DNA of 49,264 nucleotides, taken from positions 124,001 to 173,264 of the forward strand of contig JBBDMM010000002.1 of the NCBI GenBank assembly GCA_040878325.1. Reading direction: 5' to 3'. Position numbers and translations under genes: made by a program. The DNA is from Acidimicrobiia bacterium. GTDB taxonomy: Bacteria > Actinomycetota > Acidimicrobiia > Spongiisociales > UBA11373. Numbering within the stretch: position 1 is the first letter of the stretch; each line of letters begins with the position of its first letter. Positions 1,190 to 48,502 of the stretch are shown piece after piece. The notes below the pieces were generated by a model. The model was not told the DNA's origin, did no database searches, and saw only the letters and a list, made by a program, of their open reading frames with translations.

Positions 1190-3823
1190 CTACTCAGCGC
1201 CCGTCATTGCGTCCGGGGACTCCGGGACTCCCGCAGCCTCGGGGGCCTTCTTGCATGGCTTGATCTTCTTGCCTTCGGCTTCGAGCTTCGCCCGGCGTTC
1301 GGCAAGCAGCTCGGAGGCGCGTTCGATCGAGATCGATTCGACCGCGTCCTCGCGGCGCAGCGAAGCGTTGACCGAGCCATCGGTGACATACGGGCCGAAC
1401 CGACCATCGCGCACCACGACTGCGCACCCGGTTTCCGGGTCGATGCCCACCTCCCTCAAGGGACCGGTGTTCCTGGCACCTCGCCGCTTCGGCTGGGAAA
1501 AAAGCTCGAGTGCCCCGGCAAGGTCGATCTCGAAGATCTGCTCCTCCGTCTCGAGGCTGCGGGTGTCGGTCCCCTTTTTGAGGTATGGGCCGAACTTGCC
1601 GCCCTGGGCCGTGATTTGCTCCCCGCTGTCCGGATCGTTGCCGACAGTTCGAGGAAGCGCCAGAAGCCGGAGGGCGTCATCCATGGTGACCGTGTCCAGG
1701 CTCATCGACTTGAACAGCGAAGCCGTCTTCGGCTTCTTCTTCGAGTCCTCGGGCTCCACCAGAAGGACGTAAGGCCCGAACCTACCCGTCGTGGCAACCA
1801 CCTCGAGTCCGCTTTCTGGGTCGGTGCCGAGTTCGCGCTCACCTGATGGGGCGTCGAACAATTCCTCCACCTTCTCGGCGGTCAACTCGTCCGGTGCCAG
1901 GTCGTCCGGAACGCTCACACGACTCTCCCCGCGCTCGAGATAGGGCCCGTACCGGCCGCTCCGGAGCACTACATCGCCGCTTCCGCCCCCGAAGGGAATC
2001 GTGTTGATCTCCTTGGCATCGGCGTCATCGAACGTCTTGGCCACCAGATCGAGCAACCCGGGATGCCCATTCCCGAAGTAGAAAGTCGAGAGGTAGGGGA
2101 TGTGCTCGCGGTCGCCACCTGCGATCTCATCGAGGTCCTCCTCCATGCGCGCGGTGAATCCGTAGTCGACCAGCGTCGCGAAGTGCCTCTCCAGCAGGCG
2201 GACGGTGGCAAAGGCGAGGAAGGTCGGTACGAGTGCGGAGCCCTTCTTCCACACATACCCGCGATCCTGGATGGTCGAGATGATCGAGGCGTAGGTCGAT
2301 GGCCGACCGATCCCCAACTCCTCCAGCTTCTTCACGAGCGATGCCTCGGTGTACCGAGCGGGAGGTTTGGTCTCGTGCCCGACCGCCTCCAGGCTCTCGG
2401 CATCGACCGCTTGGCCCTCGGACAGGGGCGGCAACCGGACCTCCTGATCCTCGAGCTCGGCCTCCGGGTCGTCGGAGCCCTCGACATACGCCCGGAGGAA
2501 CCCGGGGAACGAGATCACCTTGCCTGATGCGGCGAACTCGGCGTCGCGTCCGGACGCCCCCGCGGCGCCAAGCCGCACCTGGACGCTCTCGCCGATCGCA
2601 TCGGCCATCTGGGAGGCCACGGTCCGTTTCCAGATGAGGTCGTAGAGCCGAGCCTCGTCCTTGTTCAGTTCCGCGGCGACCGCGTCCGGCGTGCGAAAGC
2701 GATCACCAGCCGGACGGATCGCCTCGTGGGCCTCCTGGGCGTTCTTGACCTTGCTGGCGTAGACCCGCGGCGAGTCGGGCAGATACTCGGCGCCGTACAA
2801 CTCGGCGACCTGCGACCGGGCGGCGGCAATCGCCGTCTCTGACAGCGACGTGCTGTCGGTGCGCATGTAGGTGATGTACCCGTTCTCGTAGAGCTTCTGG
2901 GCAACCTGCATCGTGCGCTGTGATCCGAAACGGAGCTTGCGTCCGGCCTCCTGCTGCAATGTGGAGGTTCGAAATGGCGGATACGGGGACCGCTTGTAGG
3001 GCTTGCTCTCGACCCGACGGATGGCGAAATCGGCGGTCTCGAGATCGGCCACGACGTTCTCGGCGCGCTCCTGGTCGAGCACAGCCACATCGCTCTTGGA
3101 GACGGCACCCACGCTGTCGAAGTCCTTCCCGGTGGCGACCCTCACCCCGTCGAGCGCGGCGAGCACGGCGGAGAAGGACCCTTCGTCGGTCGCAAAGACC
3201 CCCGCCACATCCCAGTAGCCGGCAGCCCGGAATGCCATCCGCTCGCGCTCCCGCTCGACGATTATCCGAATCGCCGGGCTCTGCACCCGGCCGGCGGACA
3301 GCTTGGGGCGAATCAACTTCCATAGGACCGGCGAAACCTCATACCCGACGAGGCGATCAAGGATGCGACGTGTCTCCTGAGCGTCGACCAGACGCCGATC
3401 CAGGTCGCGCGGAGAGTCGATGGCGCGTCGGATCGCCTCCGGGGTGATCTCGTGGAACACCATTCGCTTGACCGGCACTCTCGGACTGAGAACCTCGATG
3501 AGGTGCCATGCGATCGACTCGCCTTCTCGGTCCTCGTCGGTGGCGAGATAGACCTCGTCTGCCGCCTTCACCAACTTCTTCAGCTTCGTGATCTGGGCGC
3601 TCTTCTCATTGGGCACGATGTACAGCGGCTTGAAGTCGTTGGCCGTGTCGACCCCGAGGCGCGCCCACGACTCGTCCTTGTGAGACTTGGGAATGTCGGC
3701 GGCGCTGCGCGGCAGGTCCCGCACATGCCCGATCGAGGACTCCACGACGAAGTCGCCGCCGAGGAATCCGGCGATGGTGCGCGCCTTTGCAGGCGACTCG
3801 ACGATGACGAGTTTGGAGGGCAT
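1190..3823 (-). CDS. topA: DNA topoisomerase I (type IA) with actinobacterial C-terminal GRF/YGPY repeats
   Basis: LVIVESPAKA, ATDEDREGE TOPRIM, SAGRVQS, GYITYMRTDS active-site Tyr, QEAHEAIRP; several GR(F/Y)GPY repeats. Confidence 0.98.
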   Translation of the reverse strand: MPSKLVIVESPAKARTIAGFLGGDFVVESSIGHVRDLPRSAADIPKSHKDESWARLGVDTANDFKPLYIVPNEKSAQITKLKKLVKAADEVYLATDEDREGESIAWHLIEVLSPRVPVKRMVFHEITPEAIRRAIDSPRDLDRRLVDAQETRRILDRLVGYEVSPVLWKLIRPKLSAGRVQSPAIRIIVERERERMAFRAAGYWDVAGVFATDEGSFSAVLAALDGVRVATGKDFDSVGAVSKSDVAVLDQERAENVVADLETADFAIRRVESKPYKRSPYPPFRTSTLQQEAGRKLRFGSQRTMQVAQKLYENGYITYMRTDSTSLSETAIAAARSQVAELYGAEYLPDSPRVYASKVKNAQEAHEAIRPAGDRFRTPDAVAAELNKDEARLYDLIWKRTVASQMADAIGESVQVRLGAAGASGRDAEFAASGKVISFPGFLRAYVEGSDDPEAELEDQEVRLPPLSEGQAVDAESLEAVGHETKPPARYTEASLVKKLEELGIGRPSTYASIISTIQDRGYVWKKGSALVPTFLAFATVRLLERHFATLVDYGFTARMEEDLDEIAGGDREHIPYLSTFYFGNGHPGLLDLVAKTFDDADAKEINTIPFGGGSGDVVLRSGRYGPYLERGESRVSVPDDLAPDELTAEKVEELFDAPSGERELGTDPESGLEVVATTGRFGPYVLLVEPEDSKKKPKTASLFKSMSLDTVTMDDALRLLALPRTVGNDPDSGEQITAQGGKFGPYLKKGTDTRSLETEEQIFEIDLAGALELFSQPKRRGARNTGPLREVGIDPETGCAVVVRDGRFGPYVTDGSVNASLRREDAVESISIERASELLAERRAKLEAEGKKIKPCKKAPEAAGVPESPDAMTGAE

Positions 3824-14367: not shown

Positions 14368-14369
14368 GA

Positions 14370-14415
14370 GCCTCGCTTCGCTCGGCTTCGCAATTCGCAA
14401 TTCGCAATTCGCAAT
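14370..14415 (+). repeat. Head motif GCCTCGCTTCGCTCGGC + (TTCGCAA)x4; target site of the IS
   Basis: Read directly; the last 8 nt (14408-14415) are duplicated at 16460-16467. Confidence 0.92.
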
Positions 14416-14590
14416 GGCGATGTTCCACTTGACGCACCAAGACCCGGTTTTTGGTGTGGGTAACTACCGCGAGTTGTCAACCCGCGACTCTCCGCACTAG
14501 TCACCGTCCACCTTGCCTGTTACGATTCGGACTTGACATACCGACACGCGTGAAATTCCATCACATGTGATTTCGGGAAGAGAGGACTGG

Positions 14591-14723
14591 GAACCCCGGT
14601 GGCCGTATCGGACTGGTACTCCGATACGGCCCTTCGGCACCTGGTTCGGCAGGGCATGCCTTGGGAGGTGCTGACGCGCACATGGTAACAACCGTGTGAT
14701 TCGCGGTCAAGGCACCTCCTAGG
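14591..14723. other. Two long stem-loops in the IS 5' non-coding region
   Basis: Perfect 12-bp stem GGCCGTATCGGA/TCCGATACGGCC (14601-14631); extended hairpin GGAGGTGC..TGAC..CACATGG/CCGTGTG..GTCA..GCACCTCC (14659-14723). Confidence 0.6.
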
Positions 14724-14760
14724 GTCGGAATTTGACACACCCAGGAAGTACTTTGACGGT

Positions 14761-15693
14761 ATGGACAACAGCACACTCAACCTCGCAGAACTTGCCAAGC
14801 ACCTCACCGACGAACACGCCGCCTGGGAACTCATCGAGAGCATCCGCTGGCCCGAAGGACCGACCTGCCCCCACTGCGGATGGGAGGACGGGGCCTACTA
14901 CCTCGGGAACCGCAAGACCCGCAAGGGCGAGGTCTCCCCTCGTCGGCTCTGGAAGTGCTCGCACTGCCGGAAGCAGTACTCCGCCCTCATCGGCACGATC
15001 TTCGAGCGCAGCCACATCCCCCTGTCGAAGTGGTTGTTGGGTATCCACCTTATGTCCGCTGGCAAGAACGGCGTCTCAGCCCACGAGTTGTCCCGGCAGT
15101 TGGGCATCACCGTCAAGTCGGCCTGGTTCATGTCGCACCGCATCCGCGAGGCGATGAAGCTCGACCCGCTCGCAGGGATGCTCTCAGGCACCATCGAAGC
15201 CGACGAGACCTACATCGGAGGCAAACGCCGCGGAAGCGGCCGCGGACGACCCGGTACAGCGTCCCACAAGACCGCCGTGTCAACGCTCGTCAGCCGAGAC
15301 GGAGAAGCCCGCAGTCAGGTTATGGAGCGAGTCACCGGCGACGACCTCGGCAAAGTGCTGTCGTCCAACGTCACGCCCGACTCCACGCTCATGACCGACG
15401 AGTTCTCGGCCTACCGCAAGCCAGGGCAGATGTTCGCCGGACACGAGACCGTCAACCACGCCCACGGCGAATACGCCCGCGGACGGGTCACCACAAACAC
15501 GGTCGAGGGGTACTTCTCACAGTTGAAGCGGTCGATCGACGGGACACACCACCATGTCACCCGCCACCACCTCCCGCGGTACCTGGCGAACTTCGACTAC
15601 CTCTACTCGACCCGCAAGCTCACCGACGGTGAGCGCACCTGGCGCACCATCCGCCAGGCCGGAGGGAGGCGACTCAAGTACGACACCCTTTAG
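14761..15693 (+). CDS. IS1595-family DDE transposase
   Basis: N-terminal Zn ribbon CPHC...CSHC, GTIFERSHIPLSKW, HTH, EADETYIGG, LMTDEFSAY, TNTVEGYFSQLKR; intact 310 aa. Confidence 0.96.
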   Translation: MDNSTLNLAELAKHLTDEHAAWELIESIRWPEGPTCPHCGWEDGAYYLGNRKTRKGEVSPRRLWKCSHCRKQYSALIGTIFERSHIPLSKWLLGIHLMSAGKNGVSAHELSRQLGITVKSAWFMSHRIREAMKLDPLAGMLSGTIEADETYIGGKRRGSGRGRPGTASHKTAVSTLVSRDGEARSQVMERVTGDDLGKVLSSNVTPDSTLMTDEFSAYRKPGQMFAGHETVNHAHGEYARGRVTTNTVEGYFSQLKRSIDGTHHHVTRHHLPRYLANFDYLYSTRKLTDGERTWRTIRQAGGRRLKYDTL

Positions 15694-15698
15694 ATCAT

Positions 15699-15787
15699 GG
15701 AGGGCTGGCAGAGTGGTCTATCGCGCTCGTCTCCAAAACGAGTAGGGGCTCCCAAGCCCCACGGGAGTTCAAATCTCCCGCCCTCCA
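15699..15787 (+). tRNA. tRNA with CCA (Trp) anticodon and Ser-like long variable arm, inside the IS
   Basis: Acceptor GGAGGGC/GCCCTCC; D-loop AGTGGTCTA; anticodon stem CTCGT/ACGAG with loop CT-CCA-AA; variable arm GGGGC-TCCCAA-GCCCC; T-arm GGGAG-TTCAAAT-CTCCC; discriminator A; no encoded CCA; one D-stem mismatch. Confidence 0.85.
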
Positions 15788-15796
15788 CTGAAAGTG

Positions 15797-15820
15797 CGGG
15801 GGCCCCTCACGGGGCCCCCG
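15797..15820. terminator. GC-rich hairpin between the convergent IS transcription units
   Basis: CGGGGGCCCC-TCAC-GGGGCCCCCG, perfect 10-bp stem; followed by CACTTT on the minus strand. Confidence 0.7.
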
Positions 15821-15826
15821 ACACCC

Positions 15827-15976
15827 TCAAGACCGGCAGACGGCGTCCAAGGCCCGGCGTCACCGACGGGCACGGTGGAGACTTTCATCCCCGAAGGGAT
15901 GCCCATCGTCTACCACCTGCGTCTGCCTCACCCGCCCCCTTGCTGGACAGTGCCTGTACAGAGGGGGTGACCTTGA
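15827..15976 (-). ncRNA. Putative multi-stem structured RNA of unknown family
   Basis: Nested pairings: TCAAG/CTTGA, GGCAGACG/CGTCTGCC, GGTGGAGAC/GTCTACCACC, CATCCC-TTCG-GGGATG (cUUCGg on minus strand), GCCCCCT/AGGGGGT. Confidence 0.5.
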
Positions 15977-15979
15977 AAC

Positions 15980-16159
15980 CTACTTATCGTCCGACTCTGA
16001 TGTATCGGTGTCGTCGGACGGAACCTTGACGGACAGAAGGCCACGGAGGGCCTGGTCGAAGGTCATGGGATGGAGACTGGTGCGCTCGTCGTAGTCGCGC
16101 TTCGCCGACTCATCCTTGCTGGAGACACGCTGAACAGGCCCACGTCGCTCAGCCGCCAT
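15980..16159 (-). CDS. Small IS passenger protein (59 aa), unknown function
   Basis: MAAERRGPVQRVSSKDESAKRDYDERTSLHPMTFDQALRGLLSVKVPSDDTDTSESDDK; GGAG RBS 6 nt before the ATG; promoter upstream; below the ORF-track cutoff. Confidence 0.65.
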   Translation of the reverse strand: MAAERRGPVQRVSSKDESAKRDYDERTSLHPMTFDQALRGLLSVKVPSDDTDTSESDDK

Positions 16160-16224
16160 CTACCGCTCCCTTGGCTGGTCCGCTCACCACACCCGTAACC
16201 ACACGCGTGTGACCAGTTGTCCAC

Positions 16225-16253
16225 ATTGTCTACCCATTACCGCTACTTGTCAA
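16225..16253 (-). promoter_or_regulatory. Sigma70-type promoter for the convergent small ORF/RNA unit
   Basis: Minus strand TTGACA-17 nt-GACAAT. Confidence 0.7.
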
Positions 16254-16484
16254 TCACACAAAACACAAGCGCACAAACCCCTATTCCTCCACCCGTGTTA
16301 CCCAATCCTCCCAATTCTGTCGACATCCGCGACAAGTAGATAGATAGGAGGGTTGATGAAAAGAAGACGAATAGGCCGCCGGTCCATGAGTGGCCCTTAA
16401 GGGCTGGCCAGGCGGCACCCGCAATTGCGGGTCGGTGGTGCGTCAAGTAGAACATCACCTTCGCAATTCGACCGAGCATGTCCA

Positions 16485-16530
16485 GCGGGCAGCCGGAAGC
16501 GGGCAGCCGGAAGCGGGCAGCGGGCAGCGG
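16485..16530. repeat. Heptamer array GCGGGCA/GCCGGAA x6.5
   Basis: Read directly. Confidence 0.88.
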
Positions 16531-16574
16531 CGATCGGGGCGTGGACGTCCGACTCTCCCTCTACCGTCGCGAAC

Positions 16575-18824
16575 ATGCACCCCGTCGTTGCCGATTGGCT
16601 TGCCGATCCTGAGCGGGCCGGGCGCATCGTCCACGTCGAGACGGTGCCCGAGCGGCGGGCCATCTTCGAAGCACTCGATCCGCCGTTGCCCGACCGGCTT
16701 GCCGAGGCGCTGGGGGCGCGAGGCATCGACCGGCTGTACCGCCATCAGGCCCAGGCGATCAGCCGGGCCCGTTCGGGGATCCACACCGTGGTGGTCGCCG
16801 GCACCGCCTCGGGGAAGTCGCTGGGGTACCAGGCGCCGATCCTCGAAGCGGCGTTGGGCGAGGGGCACGCCACCGCGCTCATGCTCTTCCCCACGAAGGC
16901 GCTGGCCCGCGACCAGTTGCGAGCCCTCGACGCCTTCGGGATCGCCGAGGCGACACCGGTGGTGTACGACGGTGACACCGACGCCGACGCCCGCGTCTGG
17001 GCCCGGCGCCACGCCAATGTGGTGATGACGAACCCCGACATGCTTCACATCGGGATCCTGCCGTCCCACAGCAAATGGGCCACCTTCTTCCGTCACCTGC
17101 AATTTGTCGTCGTCGACGAGGTCCACGTCCTGCGGGGGATCTTCGGCAGCCATGTCGGGAATGTCCTGCGCCGTCTACGTCGCGTTGCCCGTCACTACGG
17201 CGCCGACCCCACGTTCCTCGGGTCGTCGGCGACGATTGGCAACCCCGGCGAATTGATGTCGGGGCTGACCGGCCTGCCGGTGGAGGTGGTGGAACAGGAC
17301 ACCTCCCCCGCCGGCGTGCGCCACTACGTGCTGTGGAACCCCGAGATGGAGGCGGACGATCTCCGCCGGAGCGCTCTCGCCGAGACCACCGACTTGTTCG
17401 TCGACCTGGTACGGCGCGGGGAGCACACGATCGCATTCACCCGGAGCCGCAAGGGTGTCGAGCTGGTGTATCGGTGGGCGCGGGAACGGCTCGATGCCGA
17501 CCTGGCGGACCGCATTGCCCCTTACCGCGCCGGGTACCTGCCTGAGCAGCGGCGTGAGGTCGAACGCCGTCTGTTCTCAGGAGAGTTGCTCGGGGTCACC
17601 GCTACCAACGCCCTCGAACTGGGGATCGACGTCGGTGGTCTCGACGCCGCCATCGTCGCCACCTTCCCCGGCACGGTTGCCTCCTTCCGGCAACAGACGG
17701 GGCGGGCGGGACGATCCACCGACGAGTCGCTTTCGGTGTTGGTGGCGGGGCAGGATGCCCTCGACCAGTGGTACATGAACCACCCTCGGGACCTGTTCGG
17801 ACGGGCTTCCGAGGCGGCGGTGATCAACCCGTCGAACCCGCATGTGCTCGCCGGCCACATGGGATGCGCCGCCTACGAGATCCCGATGCTGTCCAACGAC
17901 GCGATCGCCACGTTCGGACCGGAAGTGGAGCCGTTGGCCGCCGACCTGGTGAACGACGGAGTGTTACGGGTCCGCAACGGTCGGCTGCTCTGGGCCGGCC
18001 GCGGTGCTCCGGCTCCCGCCATCGACATCCGCACTGCCGGTGGACCGCCCTTCACGATCGTCGACGACACCGGCGAGGTGATCGGAACGATGGACGAGAA
18101 CCGGGTGTTCTCCCAGGCCCATCCCGGGGCGGTGTACCTGCACCAGGGCGACTCGTATGTGATCGAGTATCTCGACATCGCCGACCGCCTGGTCCGCGCC
18201 CGAGCCGACGAGGTGGGCTACTACACCCAGCCCGAGGAAGACACCAACATCGACGTGCTCGAGGTGCTGCGAACTGACACCGTCGGGCGATTCGGGCATC
18301 GGCTGGGCGAGGTAGAGGTCGAGTCGCATGTCACCGGGTTCAAACGCAAGAAGATCGGCGACCGCAGCGTCGTTTCCTATGAACCGCTCGATCTGCCACC
18401 CCGTCGATACGCCACCCAGGCGATCTGGTTCACCGTCGACGAGGGCCTATTGCGTGACTCCGGCGTCATGGAGGCCGACCTCCCCGGGACACTCCACGCC
18501 GCCGAGCACACCGGAATCGCCATGCTGCCCCTCTTCGCCATCTGCGACCGCTGGGACATCGGGGGGTTGTCGACCCCGTTCCACCCGGCGGCGGGTATGC
18601 CGGTCTGGTTCATCTACGACGGCTACCCCGGCGGAGCGGGGATCGCCCCCATCGCCTACGACGCCGGTGCCCGCCACCTGCGCGCCACCCTGGAGGCGCT
18701 GCGCACCTGCCCCTGCGACACCGGCTGCCCCTCATGCGTCCAGTCGCCGAAGTGCGGCAACTTCAATGAGCCGCTCGACAAGGCGGGGGCGGTGCGTCTG
18801 CTAGAGGTGGGGCTGGGTCGATAG
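16575..18824 (+). CDS. DEAD/DEAH helicase with C-terminal DUF1998 Zn domain (MrfA/SftH/Hrq1-like)
   Basis: GTASGKS, PTKALARDQ, DEVH, SAT, TNALELGID, QQTGRAGR, CPCDTGCPSC. Confidence 0.93.
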   Translation: MHPVVADWLADPERAGRIVHVETVPERRAIFEALDPPLPDRLAEALGARGIDRLYRHQAQAISRARSGIHTVVVAGTASGKSLGYQAPILEAALGEGHATALMLFPTKALARDQLRALDAFGIAEATPVVYDGDTDADARVWARRHANVVMTNPDMLHIGILPSHSKWATFFRHLQFVVVDEVHVLRGIFGSHVGNVLRRLRRVARHYGADPTFLGSSATIGNPGELMSGLTGLPVEVVEQDTSPAGVRHYVLWNPEMEADDLRRSALAETTDLFVDLVRRGEHTIAFTRSRKGVELVYRWARERLDADLADRIAPYRAGYLPEQRREVERRLFSGELLGVTATNALELGIDVGGLDAAIVATFPGTVASFRQQTGRAGRSTDESLSVLVAGQDALDQWYMNHPRDLFGRASEAAVINPSNPHVLAGHMGCAAYEIPMLSNDAIATFGPEVEPLAADLVNDGVLRVRNGRLLWAGRGAPAPAIDIRTAGGPPFTIVDDTGEVIGTMDENRVFSQAHPGAVYLHQGDSYVIEYLDIADRLVRARADEVGYYTQPEEDTNIDVLEVLRTDTVGRFGHRLGEVEVESHVTGFKRKKIGDRSVVSYEPLDLPPRRYATQAIWFTVDEGLLRDSGVMEADLPGTLHAAEHTGIAMLPLFAICDRWDIGGLSTPFHPAAGMPVWFIYDGYPGGAGIAPIAYDAGARHLRATLEALRTCPCDTGCPSCVQSPKCGNFNEPLDKAGAVRLLEVGLGR

Positions 18825-19275: not shown

Positions 19276-19297
19276 ACCATATGCTTTAGCATATGGT
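19276..19297. promoter_or_regulatory. Palindromic operator overlapping the TA promoter
   Basis: ACCATATGC-TTTA-GCATATGGT perfect dyad containing a TAGCAT -10-like box, just before the antitoxin ATG. Confidence 0.75.
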
Positions 19298-19298
19298 G

Positions 19299-19544
19299 AT
19301 GGCTCGACGAGAAGTGTTGGTACAACTGGAAGACGATCTGGTCGAAGCGCTCGACCAGATCGCAAAGGAGCGCGACACGAACCGGTCTGAGCTCCTCAGG
19401 CGCGCGGCACGGCTGCTCGTCGATGCAGTCGATGAACAGAAGGCCGACGCCGAACTGATCGAGGCCTACCGCAAGCAACCCCAGGATCCAGCGTGGATCG
19501 ACACTCTCATGCGGACGAGCCTCGAGAACTGGCCAGCGTGGTGA
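19299..19544 (+). CDS. Ribbon-helix-helix (CopG-like) antitoxin
   Basis: EVLVQLEDDLVEALDQIA...NRSELLRRA; overlaps the toxin start. Confidence 0.85.
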   Translation: MARREVLVQLEDDLVEALDQIAKERDTNRSELLRRAARLLVDAVDEQKADAELIEAYRKQPQDPAWIDTLMRTSLENWPAW

Positions 19545-19861
19545 GAAGCCGAGAGTTGAGGTGGGCCGACCTTCCGGCCCCCTATGGCCGTAGACCCGTG
19601 TGCATCCTCACCCGCGATGCCGCCCTCACGGTGGTCATAGGCGTGACCGTCGCCCCGGTGACCACAACCGTCCGCCGGATCAGATCAGAGGTGGAAGTGG
19701 GCCGCGGCGAGGGCTTGCCGGAGGCATCGGTGATCACGTGCGACAACCTCTTGACCGTCCACCGCTCTCAGATCGACCAGATACCGATCGGCGTACTCGG
19801 GCCCGAGAAGAGGATCGAACTCGACCGCGCGTTGACCTATGCCCTAGGGATCACCAACTGA
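19538..19861 (+). CDS. mazF: MazF/PemK family endoribonuclease toxin
   Basis: WADL...RRPVCILTRD, VTVAPVTTT, SVITCDNLLTV. Confidence 0.88.
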   Translation: MVRSRELRWADLPAPYGRRPVCILTRDAALTVVIGVTVAPVTTTVRRIRSEVEVGRGEGLPEASVITCDNLLTVHRSQIDQIPIGVLGPEKRIELDRALTYALGITN

Positions 19862-48408: not shown

Positions 48409-48502
48409 GGCCTCGCTTCGCTCGGCCCCCGCGATTGGCGATTGGCAAGAGGGCCTCGCTGCGCTCGGCCCGCAATTCGCAATTCGCAATTCGCAATTCG
48501 AC
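48409..48502 (+). repeat. Two head+heptamer modules; the second equals the empty IS target
   Basis: ggcctcgcttcgctcggcccc-cgcgattg gcgattg gc; gcctcgctgcgctcggcc-cgcaa(ttcgcaa)x3 ttcgac. Confidence 0.9.

Follow-up and report, generated by a model that had tools for sequence, protein, structure and literature searches.

A serine-type tRNA gene with a CCA anticodon inside an IS1595-family insertion sequence

Why would an insertion sequence carry, directly behind its transposase gene, a tRNA with a serine-type body and an anticodon, CCA, that belongs to tryptophan? The question is raised by a stretch of 49,264 nt from an Acidimicrobiia bacterium (contig JBBDMM010000002.1 of assembly GCA_040878325.1), which was analysed as a whole and is called the window below. 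A sequence-only reading of the window had described the gene at 15699-15787 as a chimera, and had proposed that it is either a natural missense tRNA, inserting Ser (or Leu, given its A73) at UGG codons, or a tRNA-like processing signal for the transcripts of the insertion sequence. Our analysis adds that the tRNA is enclosed by the inverted repeats of an element that has transposed, and that the lineage of this element carries mismatched tRNAs. We are highly confident that the gene encodes an intact class II serine-type tRNA with a CCA anticodon, foreign and additional to the tRNAs of its host, that it is cargo of a transposed transporter insertion sequence of the IS1595 family, and that in this lineage mismatched tRNAs are exchangeable while their fold is kept by compensatory change. 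Judged from sequence, the missense reading stays the most likely account of what the tRNA would do.

Structure and type of the tRNA

The only tRNA that ARAGORN calls in the window is at 15699-15788 on the forward strand, with anticodon cca. The Rfam model RF00005 (gathering score 29) matches 15699-15787 over its full length (model positions 1-71 of 71) with 49.1 bits and an E value of 1.4e-07. Separated by structural segments, the letters are GGAGGGC-TG-GCAG-AGTGGTCTA-TCGC-G-CTCGT-CTCCAAA-ACGAG-TA-GGGGC-TCCCAA-GCCCC-AC-GGGAG-TTCAAAT-CTCCC-GCCCTCC-A. The acceptor stem (GGAGGGC/GCCCTCC) gives G1-C72, G2-C71 and A3-U70, and the D-stem (GCAG/TCGC) combines a C11-G24 pair with an A12-C23 mismatch and a G13-U22 wobble. 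The anticodon loop is CU-CCA-AA, with the anticodon at 15733-15735, the variable region of 20 nt forms a 5-bp stem (GGGGC/GCCCC), and the T-arm reads GGGAG-TTCAAAT-CTCCC. The discriminator A73 at 15787 is followed by CTG, and hence no CCA end is encoded; a spacer of 5 nt separates the tRNA start from the transposase stop codon TAG at 15691-15693. The details given by the sequence-only reading, among them the cloverleaf with its paired variable arm, the position behind the transposase stop and the three caveats of A73, mismatch and absent CCA, thus all proved correct.

The gene keeps the universal positions U8, A14, G18G19, A21, U33, A37, G53-T54-T55-C56, A58 and C61; the conserved tertiary positions are all intact, as are four of the five helices, and the helices are far better than those of shuffled sequences (z = -4.5, with none of 200 shuffles folding as well). 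The gene was reported under RF00005 only and not under the Rfam tRNA-Sec model RF01852, and its anticodon is CCA, not UCA. Within the 2,044-bp element no second tRNA-like gene was found down to E = 1. An assembly error at the CCA anticodon was considered and rejected, as contigs from three runs of one sediment study (X1-X3, where X1 may be the source sample and X2 and X3 come from other samples) cover the tRNA and agree, with no difference listed between 14588 and 16010; these contigs are assemblies, not raw reads.

The host genome (2.21 Mb in 18 contigs, 66% G+C) already has one canonical tRNA-Trp(CCA), a gene of 75 nt (C9:70090-70164) with A1-U72, G73 and a short variable loop, and the CCA tRNA of the window is therefore an extra. 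The host set further includes four tRNA-Ser (GCU, UGA, CGA and GGA), one tRNA-Tyr, a tRNA-Sec and five tRNA-Leu. Above the curated cut-offs there is a single serS and a single trpS; no extra synthetase was found beyond these two in the host genome, and none inside the element.

Three comparisons place the body of the tRNA among serine tRNAs, and they bear out the description as a chimera. In identity with a masked anticodon it stands closest to host Ser(GGA) and Ser(GCU) (both 0.71), then to Ser(CGA) (0.68) and Sec (0.67), by a crude typing against the 45 tRNAs of this single genome. The length of the D-loop and the layout of the variable arm (2 nt, 5-bp stem, 2 nt) equal those of host Ser(GCU), unlike host Leu or Tyr. 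Finally, of the seven bacterial serine determinants in the table of Giege and Eriani 2023 (PMC9976931; this and the other papers cited by PMC number are drawn on in part), six are present, namely C72, G2-C71, G4-C69, C11-G24, the large variable region and G30-C40. Of the marks of tRNA-Leu, A73 is present, but in G2-C71, D-loop and variable-arm layout the gene agrees with host Ser, and the four nearest bodies include no Leu tRNA; the C2-G71 pair of tRNA-Leu is a block to SerRS (PMC9976931). By its anticodon, neither NGA nor GCU, the gene falls outside tRNA-Ser, and of the features of tRNA-Trp it has the CCA anticodon and lacks the short variable loop, G73 and A1-U72. Its anticodon arm equals that of host tRNA-Trp at 15 of 17 bases, and its loop CUCCAAA has A36-A37-A38.

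Thus, the tRNA is of serine type, yet no recent copy of any host gene. An origin from the Ser anticodon CGA, which the sequence-only reading had noted to be one change away, finds no support as a local event, given 68% identity to host Ser(CGA) and the arrival of the gene with the insertion sequence. We likewise rejected a local duplicate of a host tRNA-Ser, since no host identity exceeds 0.71 and the inverted repeats enclose the gene. In the host genome the stretch 14500-16000 occurs once, and BLAST found no close homologue of the tRNA among 40 relatives.

The element and its relatives

The element occupies 14416-16459 (2,044 bp). It begins with a non-coding left part of 345 nt, which is followed by the transposase, the tRNA, a G+C hairpin and a convergent open reading frame (ORF) of 59 aa (Table 1). 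The transposase matches Pfam PF12762 (DDE_Tnp_IS1595, 6.1e-35) and PF12760 (Zn_ribbon_IS1595, 2.5e-12), and scores 198.4 bits with NCBIfam NF033547, for which the cut-off is 75. Short conserved blocks at 14403-14438 and 16437-16470 in the comparison with the closest relatives pointed to the terminal repeats. A target duplication of 8 bp is typical of the IS1595 family, and the element combines it with a DDE transposase bearing a zinc ribbon and with terminal inverted repeats; the tRNA and the 59-aa ORF between transposase and right repeat make it a transporter insertion sequence. Judged by the perfect duplication, the repeats matching at 22 of 24 positions and the intact ORF, the element is young.

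Table 1. The tRNA-carrying element and its target duplications, in window coordinates
Feature	Position	Strand	Support and remarks
Left 8-bp target duplication TTCGCAAT	14408-14415	.	Within (TTCGCAA)n array 14387-14415; direct repeat family D2
Left terminal inverted repeat GGCGATGTTCCACTTGACGCACCA, 24 nt	14416-14439	+	Inverted repeat I1; same repeat bounds L042, L043 and L044
Non-coding left part or leader	14440-14760	+	Palindrome 14601-14631; hairpin arms 14659-14671/14712-14724; inner inverted-repeat-like word TTTGACACACCCA at 14731-14743
IS1595-family transposase, 310 aa	14761-15693	+	Pfam, NCBIfam
Class II serine-type tRNA, anticodon CCA	15699-15787	+	ARAGORN, Rfam, sequence reading, masked-anticodon identity, alignment
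10-bp G+C hairpin, loop TCAC, terminator-like without T run	15797-15820	+	Sequence; contig breakpoint in all three runs
Small conserved ORF, 59 aa, convergent with tRNA	15980-16159	-	tblastx, ORFs, tblastn
Promoter-like site TTGACA-17-GACAAT, 5' of small ORF	16225-16253	-	Consensus match only
Right terminal inverted repeat, 22/24 match to left	16436-16459	-	Repeat search; contigs break at 16461-16468
Right 8-bp target duplication TTCGCAAT	16460-16467	.	Perfect copy of left

In runs X2 and X3 the contigs end at 14413-14415 and 16461-16468, the positions at which an assembly graph would break over a mobile or polymorphic element. In two genomes of the same genus, neither an insertion sequence nor a tRNA separates the LytR-CpsA-Psr gene from the MrfA-type helicase gene; what stands there is an ORF of ~900 aa on the other strand. 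This ORF carries DKTGT and GDGVNDAP, which we take to be the motifs of a P-type ATPase, and the window genome has no such gene there. A minor diverged contig (X2, X3) joins 14368 to 16575 with 31 other letters between, and has neither the element nor the ATPase gene.

Relatives of the transposase are numerous (at least 7,998 in the protein collection at E up to 1e-10), the best being 80% identical and the named ones coming from several phyla. Among metagenome contigs 512 relatives were confirmed, and the best 80 were kept with their flanks and scanned for tRNAs. Where the transposase is at least 58% identical, 8 of 15 loci have a tRNA (12 tRNAs, nine of them class II, 83-96 nt), and below 58% the figure is 4 of 65 loci (two of the loci being duplicates), with no class II tRNA. 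In genomes of the same phylum, at 34-51% identity, tRNAs stand at 2 of the 27 loci scanned out of 29 (two from an unpublished genome were left out); one is an ordinary-looking Ser(CGA) and the other an 89-nt Leu-type body with GUC. The latter, at L141 3277-3365, has A73, an encoded CCA and the loop UUGUCUC, and lies ~1 kb from a distant IS1595 transposase (36% identical).

The survey of anticodons in homologous copies that the sequence-only reading had proposed was carried out on this material. By a rough typing from masked identity together with acceptor and discriminator marks, anticodon and body disagree in all nine class II cargo tRNAs. Bodies of Ser or Sec type carry UUC (L042) or CAA (L043, L044, L048), and bodies of Leu type carry UUC (L044), UGG (L045, L053, L056) or CGG (L052). 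Three of these elements, L042, L043 and L044, have both inverted repeats and 8-bp duplications of their own, with the tRNAs inside. The closest relative, L042 (transposase 80% identical in protein and 77% in DNA), has the layout of the window element, with a tRNA 6 nt after the stop codon, a hairpin, the convergent small ORF and the right repeat, and yet its ~290-nt tRNA segment is unrelated to that of the window. The tRNA slot is thus conserved and its content exchangeable. The L042 tRNA (3431-3526) scores 50.5 bits vs 47 under RF01852, and has the loop CUUUCAA, anticodon UUC, a 7/5 frame and an enlarged D-arm. The slot is also found in other orientations: the tRNAs lie upstream of the transposase in L043 and L044, and downstream of it in L045, L048, L052, L053 and L056, in all cases on the opposite strand. 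The class I tRNAs that accompany class II cargo (L048 1811-1882, L052 3547-3620 and L043 1212-1288) look re-targeted too; the L048 tRNA, with anticodon GUC, has host tRNA-Asn as its nearest body (0.73), and the L043 tRNA has A34 in its anticodon AGC and lacks G3-U70. SocA/Panacea antitoxin-domain genes beside a small ORF of no known family are seen at L044 2291-3245 and L046 3686-4527, and the one in L044 shares its element with two mismatched tRNAs.

The cargo tRNAs bear marks of a maintained fold. In an alignment of nine Ser-type tRNAs with CCA or CAA anticodons, compensatory change is seen at 18 of 26 predicted pairs, and G1-C72 and G2-C71 are invariant in all nine; C11-G24 and G10-C25 are invariant too, but were imposed by the search pattern for five of the nine sequences. 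The discriminator is G in six, A in two and U in one. L043 and L044 provide the closest comparison, with transposases that are 91.5% identical and CAA tRNAs that are 83.7% identical: double changes have occurred at pairs 30-40, 49-65 and 50-64, and the variable stems differ in sequence and are both fully paired. Such a pattern is the signature expected of a maintained fold, not of decay. Moreover, class II tRNAs make up 9 of 12 cargo tRNAs vs 10 of 45 host tRNAs, an excess that is expected if the tRNAs must stay chargeable after a change of anticodon. We propose that the cargo favors bodies of Ser and Leu type because selection acts for tRNAs that are re-targeted and still charged, the synthetases for these two amino acids ignoring the anticodon.

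Long-arm CCA tRNAs occur in other genomes as well. One genome per species was scanned with a pattern that joins a Ser-type D-arm to the loop CTCCAAA; of the 23 hits, eight are class II CCA tRNAs, from six phyla. Two of these eight have an IS1595-type transposase gene within 300 nt (L013 and L025, both Dehalococcoidia), and no such transposase was found at the 15 hits without a class II CCA tRNA or at eight viral loci. A class I tRNA-Trp pattern matched in four of eight genomes searched (L013, L017, L025 and L004), and in at least L013, L017 and L025, where the match looks like an ordinary tRNA-Trp, the long-arm CCA tRNA is an extra, as it is in the window genome. The D-stem GCAG/TCGC with its A12-C23 mismatch is common to the window, L004 and L025, the latter two from two other phyla, and is therefore a trait of the lineage and not fresh damage.

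Some long-arm CCA tRNAs have a Trp-like acceptor (A1-U72, G73), namely L015 650-735 and L018 2953-3039 in Firmicutes and L038 1994-2085 in a 345-kb phage. Those of L018 and L038 lie within large tRNA arrays, and that of L015 adjoins a tRNA-Asp. No match to the class I tRNA-Trp pattern was obtained in the two Firmicutes genomes, the completeness of which is unknown, and the long-arm CCA tRNAs of L015 and L018 could be the working tRNA-Trp of those organisms. The array of 15 tRNAs in L018, an Acutalibacteraceae genome, also contains a ROOL RNA (Rfam RF03087, 354 bits) at 3230-3797.

Possible function and known parallels

The best overall explanation, which we consider to have about an even chance, is that of a serine-type tRNA that is mobile and can cause a low level of Ser insertion at UGG. 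That this particular tRNA is charged with Ser and decodes UGG we hold to be slightly short of evens. The tRNA would be transcribed together with the transposase mRNA, because it follows the stop codon by 5 nt and no promoter of its own is seen. RNase P and 3' trimming would release it, and the CCA-adding enzyme would supply the CCA end. Charging would fall mainly to the single host SerRS, as Ser and Leu are the identities with synthetases blind to the anticodon (PMC9976931). G73 is a moderate serine determinant in E. coli and a strong one in some systems, and in E. coli tRNA-Ser it keeps out LeuRS and TyrRS (PMC9976931). Charging by SerRS is probably inefficient because A73 replaces G73, and A73 may also lift the block against LeuRS and TyrRS. 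In bacterial TrpRS recognition G73 is a major determinant and A1-U72 a minor one, the CCA anticodon being strong (PMC9976931); with A73, Ser and Trp identity are therefore both weaker, and charging with Leu or Tyr becomes possible. Once charged, the tRNA would compete with tRNA-Trp at UGG and cause a low level of Trp-to-Ser, perhaps Trp-to-Leu, substitution.

This explanation should be taken with some caution, since several observations weigh against it. The seventh serine determinant, G73, is replaced by A73. The D-stem amounts to two Watson-Crick pairs, an A-C and a G-U, and the Rfam score of 49.1 bits is lower than that of all seven host class II tRNAs scored (52.1-63.0). The minimum-energy fold of the unmodified RNA (-44.2 kcal/mol) lies 5.4 kcal/mol below the cloverleaf (-38.8 kcal/mol), and is not a cloverleaf because the weak D-stem allows the D-loop to pair with the anticodon stem; folded likewise, three of seven host class II tRNAs have a non-cloverleaf minimum, one of them in the D arm alone. 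In 17 aligned transposases four tryptophans are invariant (W30, W64, W91 and W122), and efficient Trp-to-Ser decoding would therefore harm the element. Among the comparative data, terminal repeats were not found around the IS1595 genes of L013 and L025, where adjacency is what was seen; the metagenomic loci are not independent, several coming from the same projects; and the typing of cargo bodies is rough, with one genome as reference and with L048 and L056 ambiguous by identity. The invariant tryptophans, A73 and the weak D-stem suggest that any misreading of UGG would be kept low. We rejected a private code, in which the transposase itself would mean Ser at UGG: its four tryptophans are invariant in the 17 sequences, and the variable W41 is Ser in three. 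A T-box-like pairing of the leader was also looked for, and no 7-nt complement to the cargo anticodon loop exists elsewhere in four elements, by a method blind to a specifier of 3 nt.

Four other explanations have to be weighed against serine insertion. A poorly charged tRNA might not serve translation at all, but act as a tRNA-shaped decoy that soaks up an anticodon-loop nuclease or a tRNA-targeting toxin, with its Trp-type loop as bait, or as a regulator of the expression of the element. Poor charging is suggested by A73, the weak D-stem and the Rfam score below those of the scored host class II tRNAs, related elements have parts of toxin-antitoxin systems (the SocA/Panacea genes in L044 and L046), and the anticodon differs between elements in a constant slot. 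Further, the allo-tRNAs discussed below occur near toxin-antitoxin systems, and none of six allo-tRNA(UAU) variants that were tested in E. coli was active (PMC5389517). A decoy requires no serine determinants, however, and yet G1-C72 and G2-C71 are invariant in nine of nine sequences and the bodies are those of anticodon-blind identities; the window element has no toxin gene, and the lack of a 7-nt complement to the anticodon loop in the four elements gives no sign of pairing with element RNA. We regard a decoy or regulator as unlikely, though it is the chief rival to serine insertion. A neutral hitch-hiker, that is, a captured tRNA-Ser drifting to CCA, A73 and a broken D-stem on the path to a pseudogene, we consider improbable. 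IS1595 transporters do acquire unrelated passenger genes (PMC3129680, citing Siguier et al. 2009), the gene departs from a standard tRNA-Ser in three respects, it is single-copy without a BLAST match in 40 relatives, and the L043 and L044 tRNAs have diverged more than their transposases (83.7% vs 91.5% identity). Against drift stand the intact tertiary positions and four of five helices, the occurrence of the A12-C23 D-stem in two other phyla (L004, L025), the compensatory nature of the substitutions between related copies and the youth of the element (perfect duplication, 22/24 repeats, intact ORF); nor does drift predict the class II excess (9/12 vs 10/45) or a mismatch in nine of nine.

The two remaining explanations are very improbable. 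A genuine and harmless extra tRNA-Trp, charged by TrpRS despite the long arm, would profit from the strong CCA determinant (PMC9976931) and from an anticodon arm identical to that of host tRNA-Trp at 15 of 17 bases, and class II CCA tRNAs with A1-U72 and G73 do exist (L015, L018, L038). But TrpRS relies on G73 and to a minor degree on A1-U72 (PMC9976931), both present in host tRNA-Trp, and the window tRNA has A73 and G1-C72. Lower still we place a signal for processing or stability only, at which RNase P and 3' nucleases cut the transposase transcript and free an RNA without a role. This proposal of the sequence-only reading fits the window and L042, where the tRNA follows the stop by 5 and 6 nt and a strong hairpin comes next, but not the relatives in which tRNAs lie on the other strand, upstream (L043, L044) or downstream (L045, L048, L052, L053, L056). 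Any tRNA would do as a cut site, and the mismatched anticodons would be left unexplained.

Changes of the genetic code have their raw material in natural tRNAs with discordant identity and anticodon, which are rare. The window tRNA stands on an element that has demonstrably moved, and relatives of this element in many phyla have cargo of this kind with other anticodons. Streptomyces tRNA-ProX and ProRSx form a natural mistranslation pair with a synthetase of its own, and nematodes have long-arm tRNAs with Gly or Ile anticodons that are charged with Leu. The window tRNA resembles both as a naturally kept tRNA whose identity and anticodon disagree; it is unlike the Streptomyces pair in that its element encodes no synthetase and its host has one serS and one trpS. 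Closer parallels are the allo-tRNAs of environmental bacteria (Mukai et al. 2017, Nucleic Acids Res, PMC5389517), which combine long variable arms and serine marks with a wide range of anticodons that are not those of serine. In E. coli, sense or stop codons are read as Ser by some of them, while others show no activity; they are reported to lie near toxin-antitoxin systems, and one overlaps a 'transposon-related' ORF (PMC5389517). They occur in Clostridia, Proteobacteria and Acidobacteria (review PMC7609411). Serine marks, a non-serine anticodon and a mobile context are shared by the window tRNA, and related elements have Panacea-domain genes. However, allo-tRNAs have a 12-bp acceptor branch in an 8/4 or 9/3 arrangement, and the window tRNA has the standard 7/5 cloverleaf. 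By analogy it may resemble allo-tRNAs in function, and it is not a member of the group. In the text of PMC5389517 the terms 'IS1595' and 'ISXO2' are absent, and the passages drawn on here name no insertion sequence family, inverted repeats or target duplications. Engineered tRNA-Ser genes with foreign anticodons insert Ser at targeted codons in yeast, often with toxic effect (PMC6125640). These share with the window tRNA a Ser body, a foreign anticodon and reliance on a SerRS blind to it (PMC6125640), but are laboratory constructs or rare alleles, whereas the window tRNA is natural, bacterial and mobile and has A73.

The element, in turn, is like known IS1595 transporters in its DDE_Tnp_IS1595 domain with N-terminal zinc ribbon, inverted repeats, 8-bp duplication and extra genes (PMC3129680, citing Siguier, Gagnevin and Chandler 2009). 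It is unlike them in its cargo, a mismatched tRNA and a small conserved ORF, and in its insertion into heptamer arrays in four of four cases. Full-text searches of the literature, the supplements of Mukai et al. 2017 aside, brought up no paper that describes IS1595 elements with tRNAs as cargo. What is new is the joining of two known kinds, natural tRNAs with mismatched anticodons and cargo-carrying IS1595 elements.

A broader and more tentative idea is that this clade of IS1595 transporters is a horizontal vehicle for re-targeted tRNAs of Ser, Leu and Sec type, with a cassette-like slot for anticodons that would bring missense decoding to any host; we think it doubtful, if possible. Under this idea the elements would be a natural and mobile source of codon reinterpretation, and selection might act on the tRNAs either for mistranslation under regulation or for their use, as a weapon or a shield, where there is conflict over tRNAs; we put this forward with as little assurance. 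If the tRNAs are charged, bacteria would acquire a low level of codon misreading from one another through insertion sequences. This would have a bearing on the beginnings of codon reassignment and on the tolerance of mistranslation, and amino acids should then be read from anticodons with caution in metagenomic annotation. If they stay uncharged, they would form a new class of tRNA mimics borne by transposons, with a target to be found. The elements are in addition a ready collection of natural, compact and anticodon-flexible tRNA scaffolds.

Insertion site, leader and small ORF

Both ends are visible in four elements (the window element, L042, L043 and L044), and each of these sits in an array of CAATTCG, CAATTGG or CAATTGC; in L051 a single end is visible, and it adjoins similar heptamer repeats. 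This suggests a preference of the lineage for heptamer-array targets. Tandem arrays of TTCGCAA (3-7 units with conserved flanks) are present at 22 places in the host genome, one of them near window position 48476, and such an array flanks the element at 14387-14415 and 16460-16473.

The left part has a computed fold of -94.9 kcal/mol over 211 nt. Leaders of related elements fold strongly as well, and no structure conserved across them was demonstrated. About 300 nt separate the outer left repeat from the inner word TTTGACACACCCA, and in more distant relatives a TTTGACACACCCA-type word just 5' of the transposase is the true left end. The stretch 14440-14760, which also holds the perfect 12+12 palindrome at 14601-14631, may be left-side cargo or a regulatory leader.

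The small ORF has no Pfam or NCBIfam match, and Atlas clusters contain it as 'hypothetical protein' only. Its product has the motif RDYDERTSLxPLxFEEALxGLLxVKP and an acidic tail, and tblastn found homologues at 16 of the loci searched, most of them adjoining related transposases. At 16483-16531, just to the right of the element, a 14-nt unit with a consensus near GCGGGCAGCCGGAA is repeated three times in tandem; the conserved part of the helicase gene lies 3' of these repeats. A toxin-antitoxin pair of a ribbon-helix-helix protein and PemK/MazF is encoded at 19293-19861, outside the element and 2.8 kb downstream.

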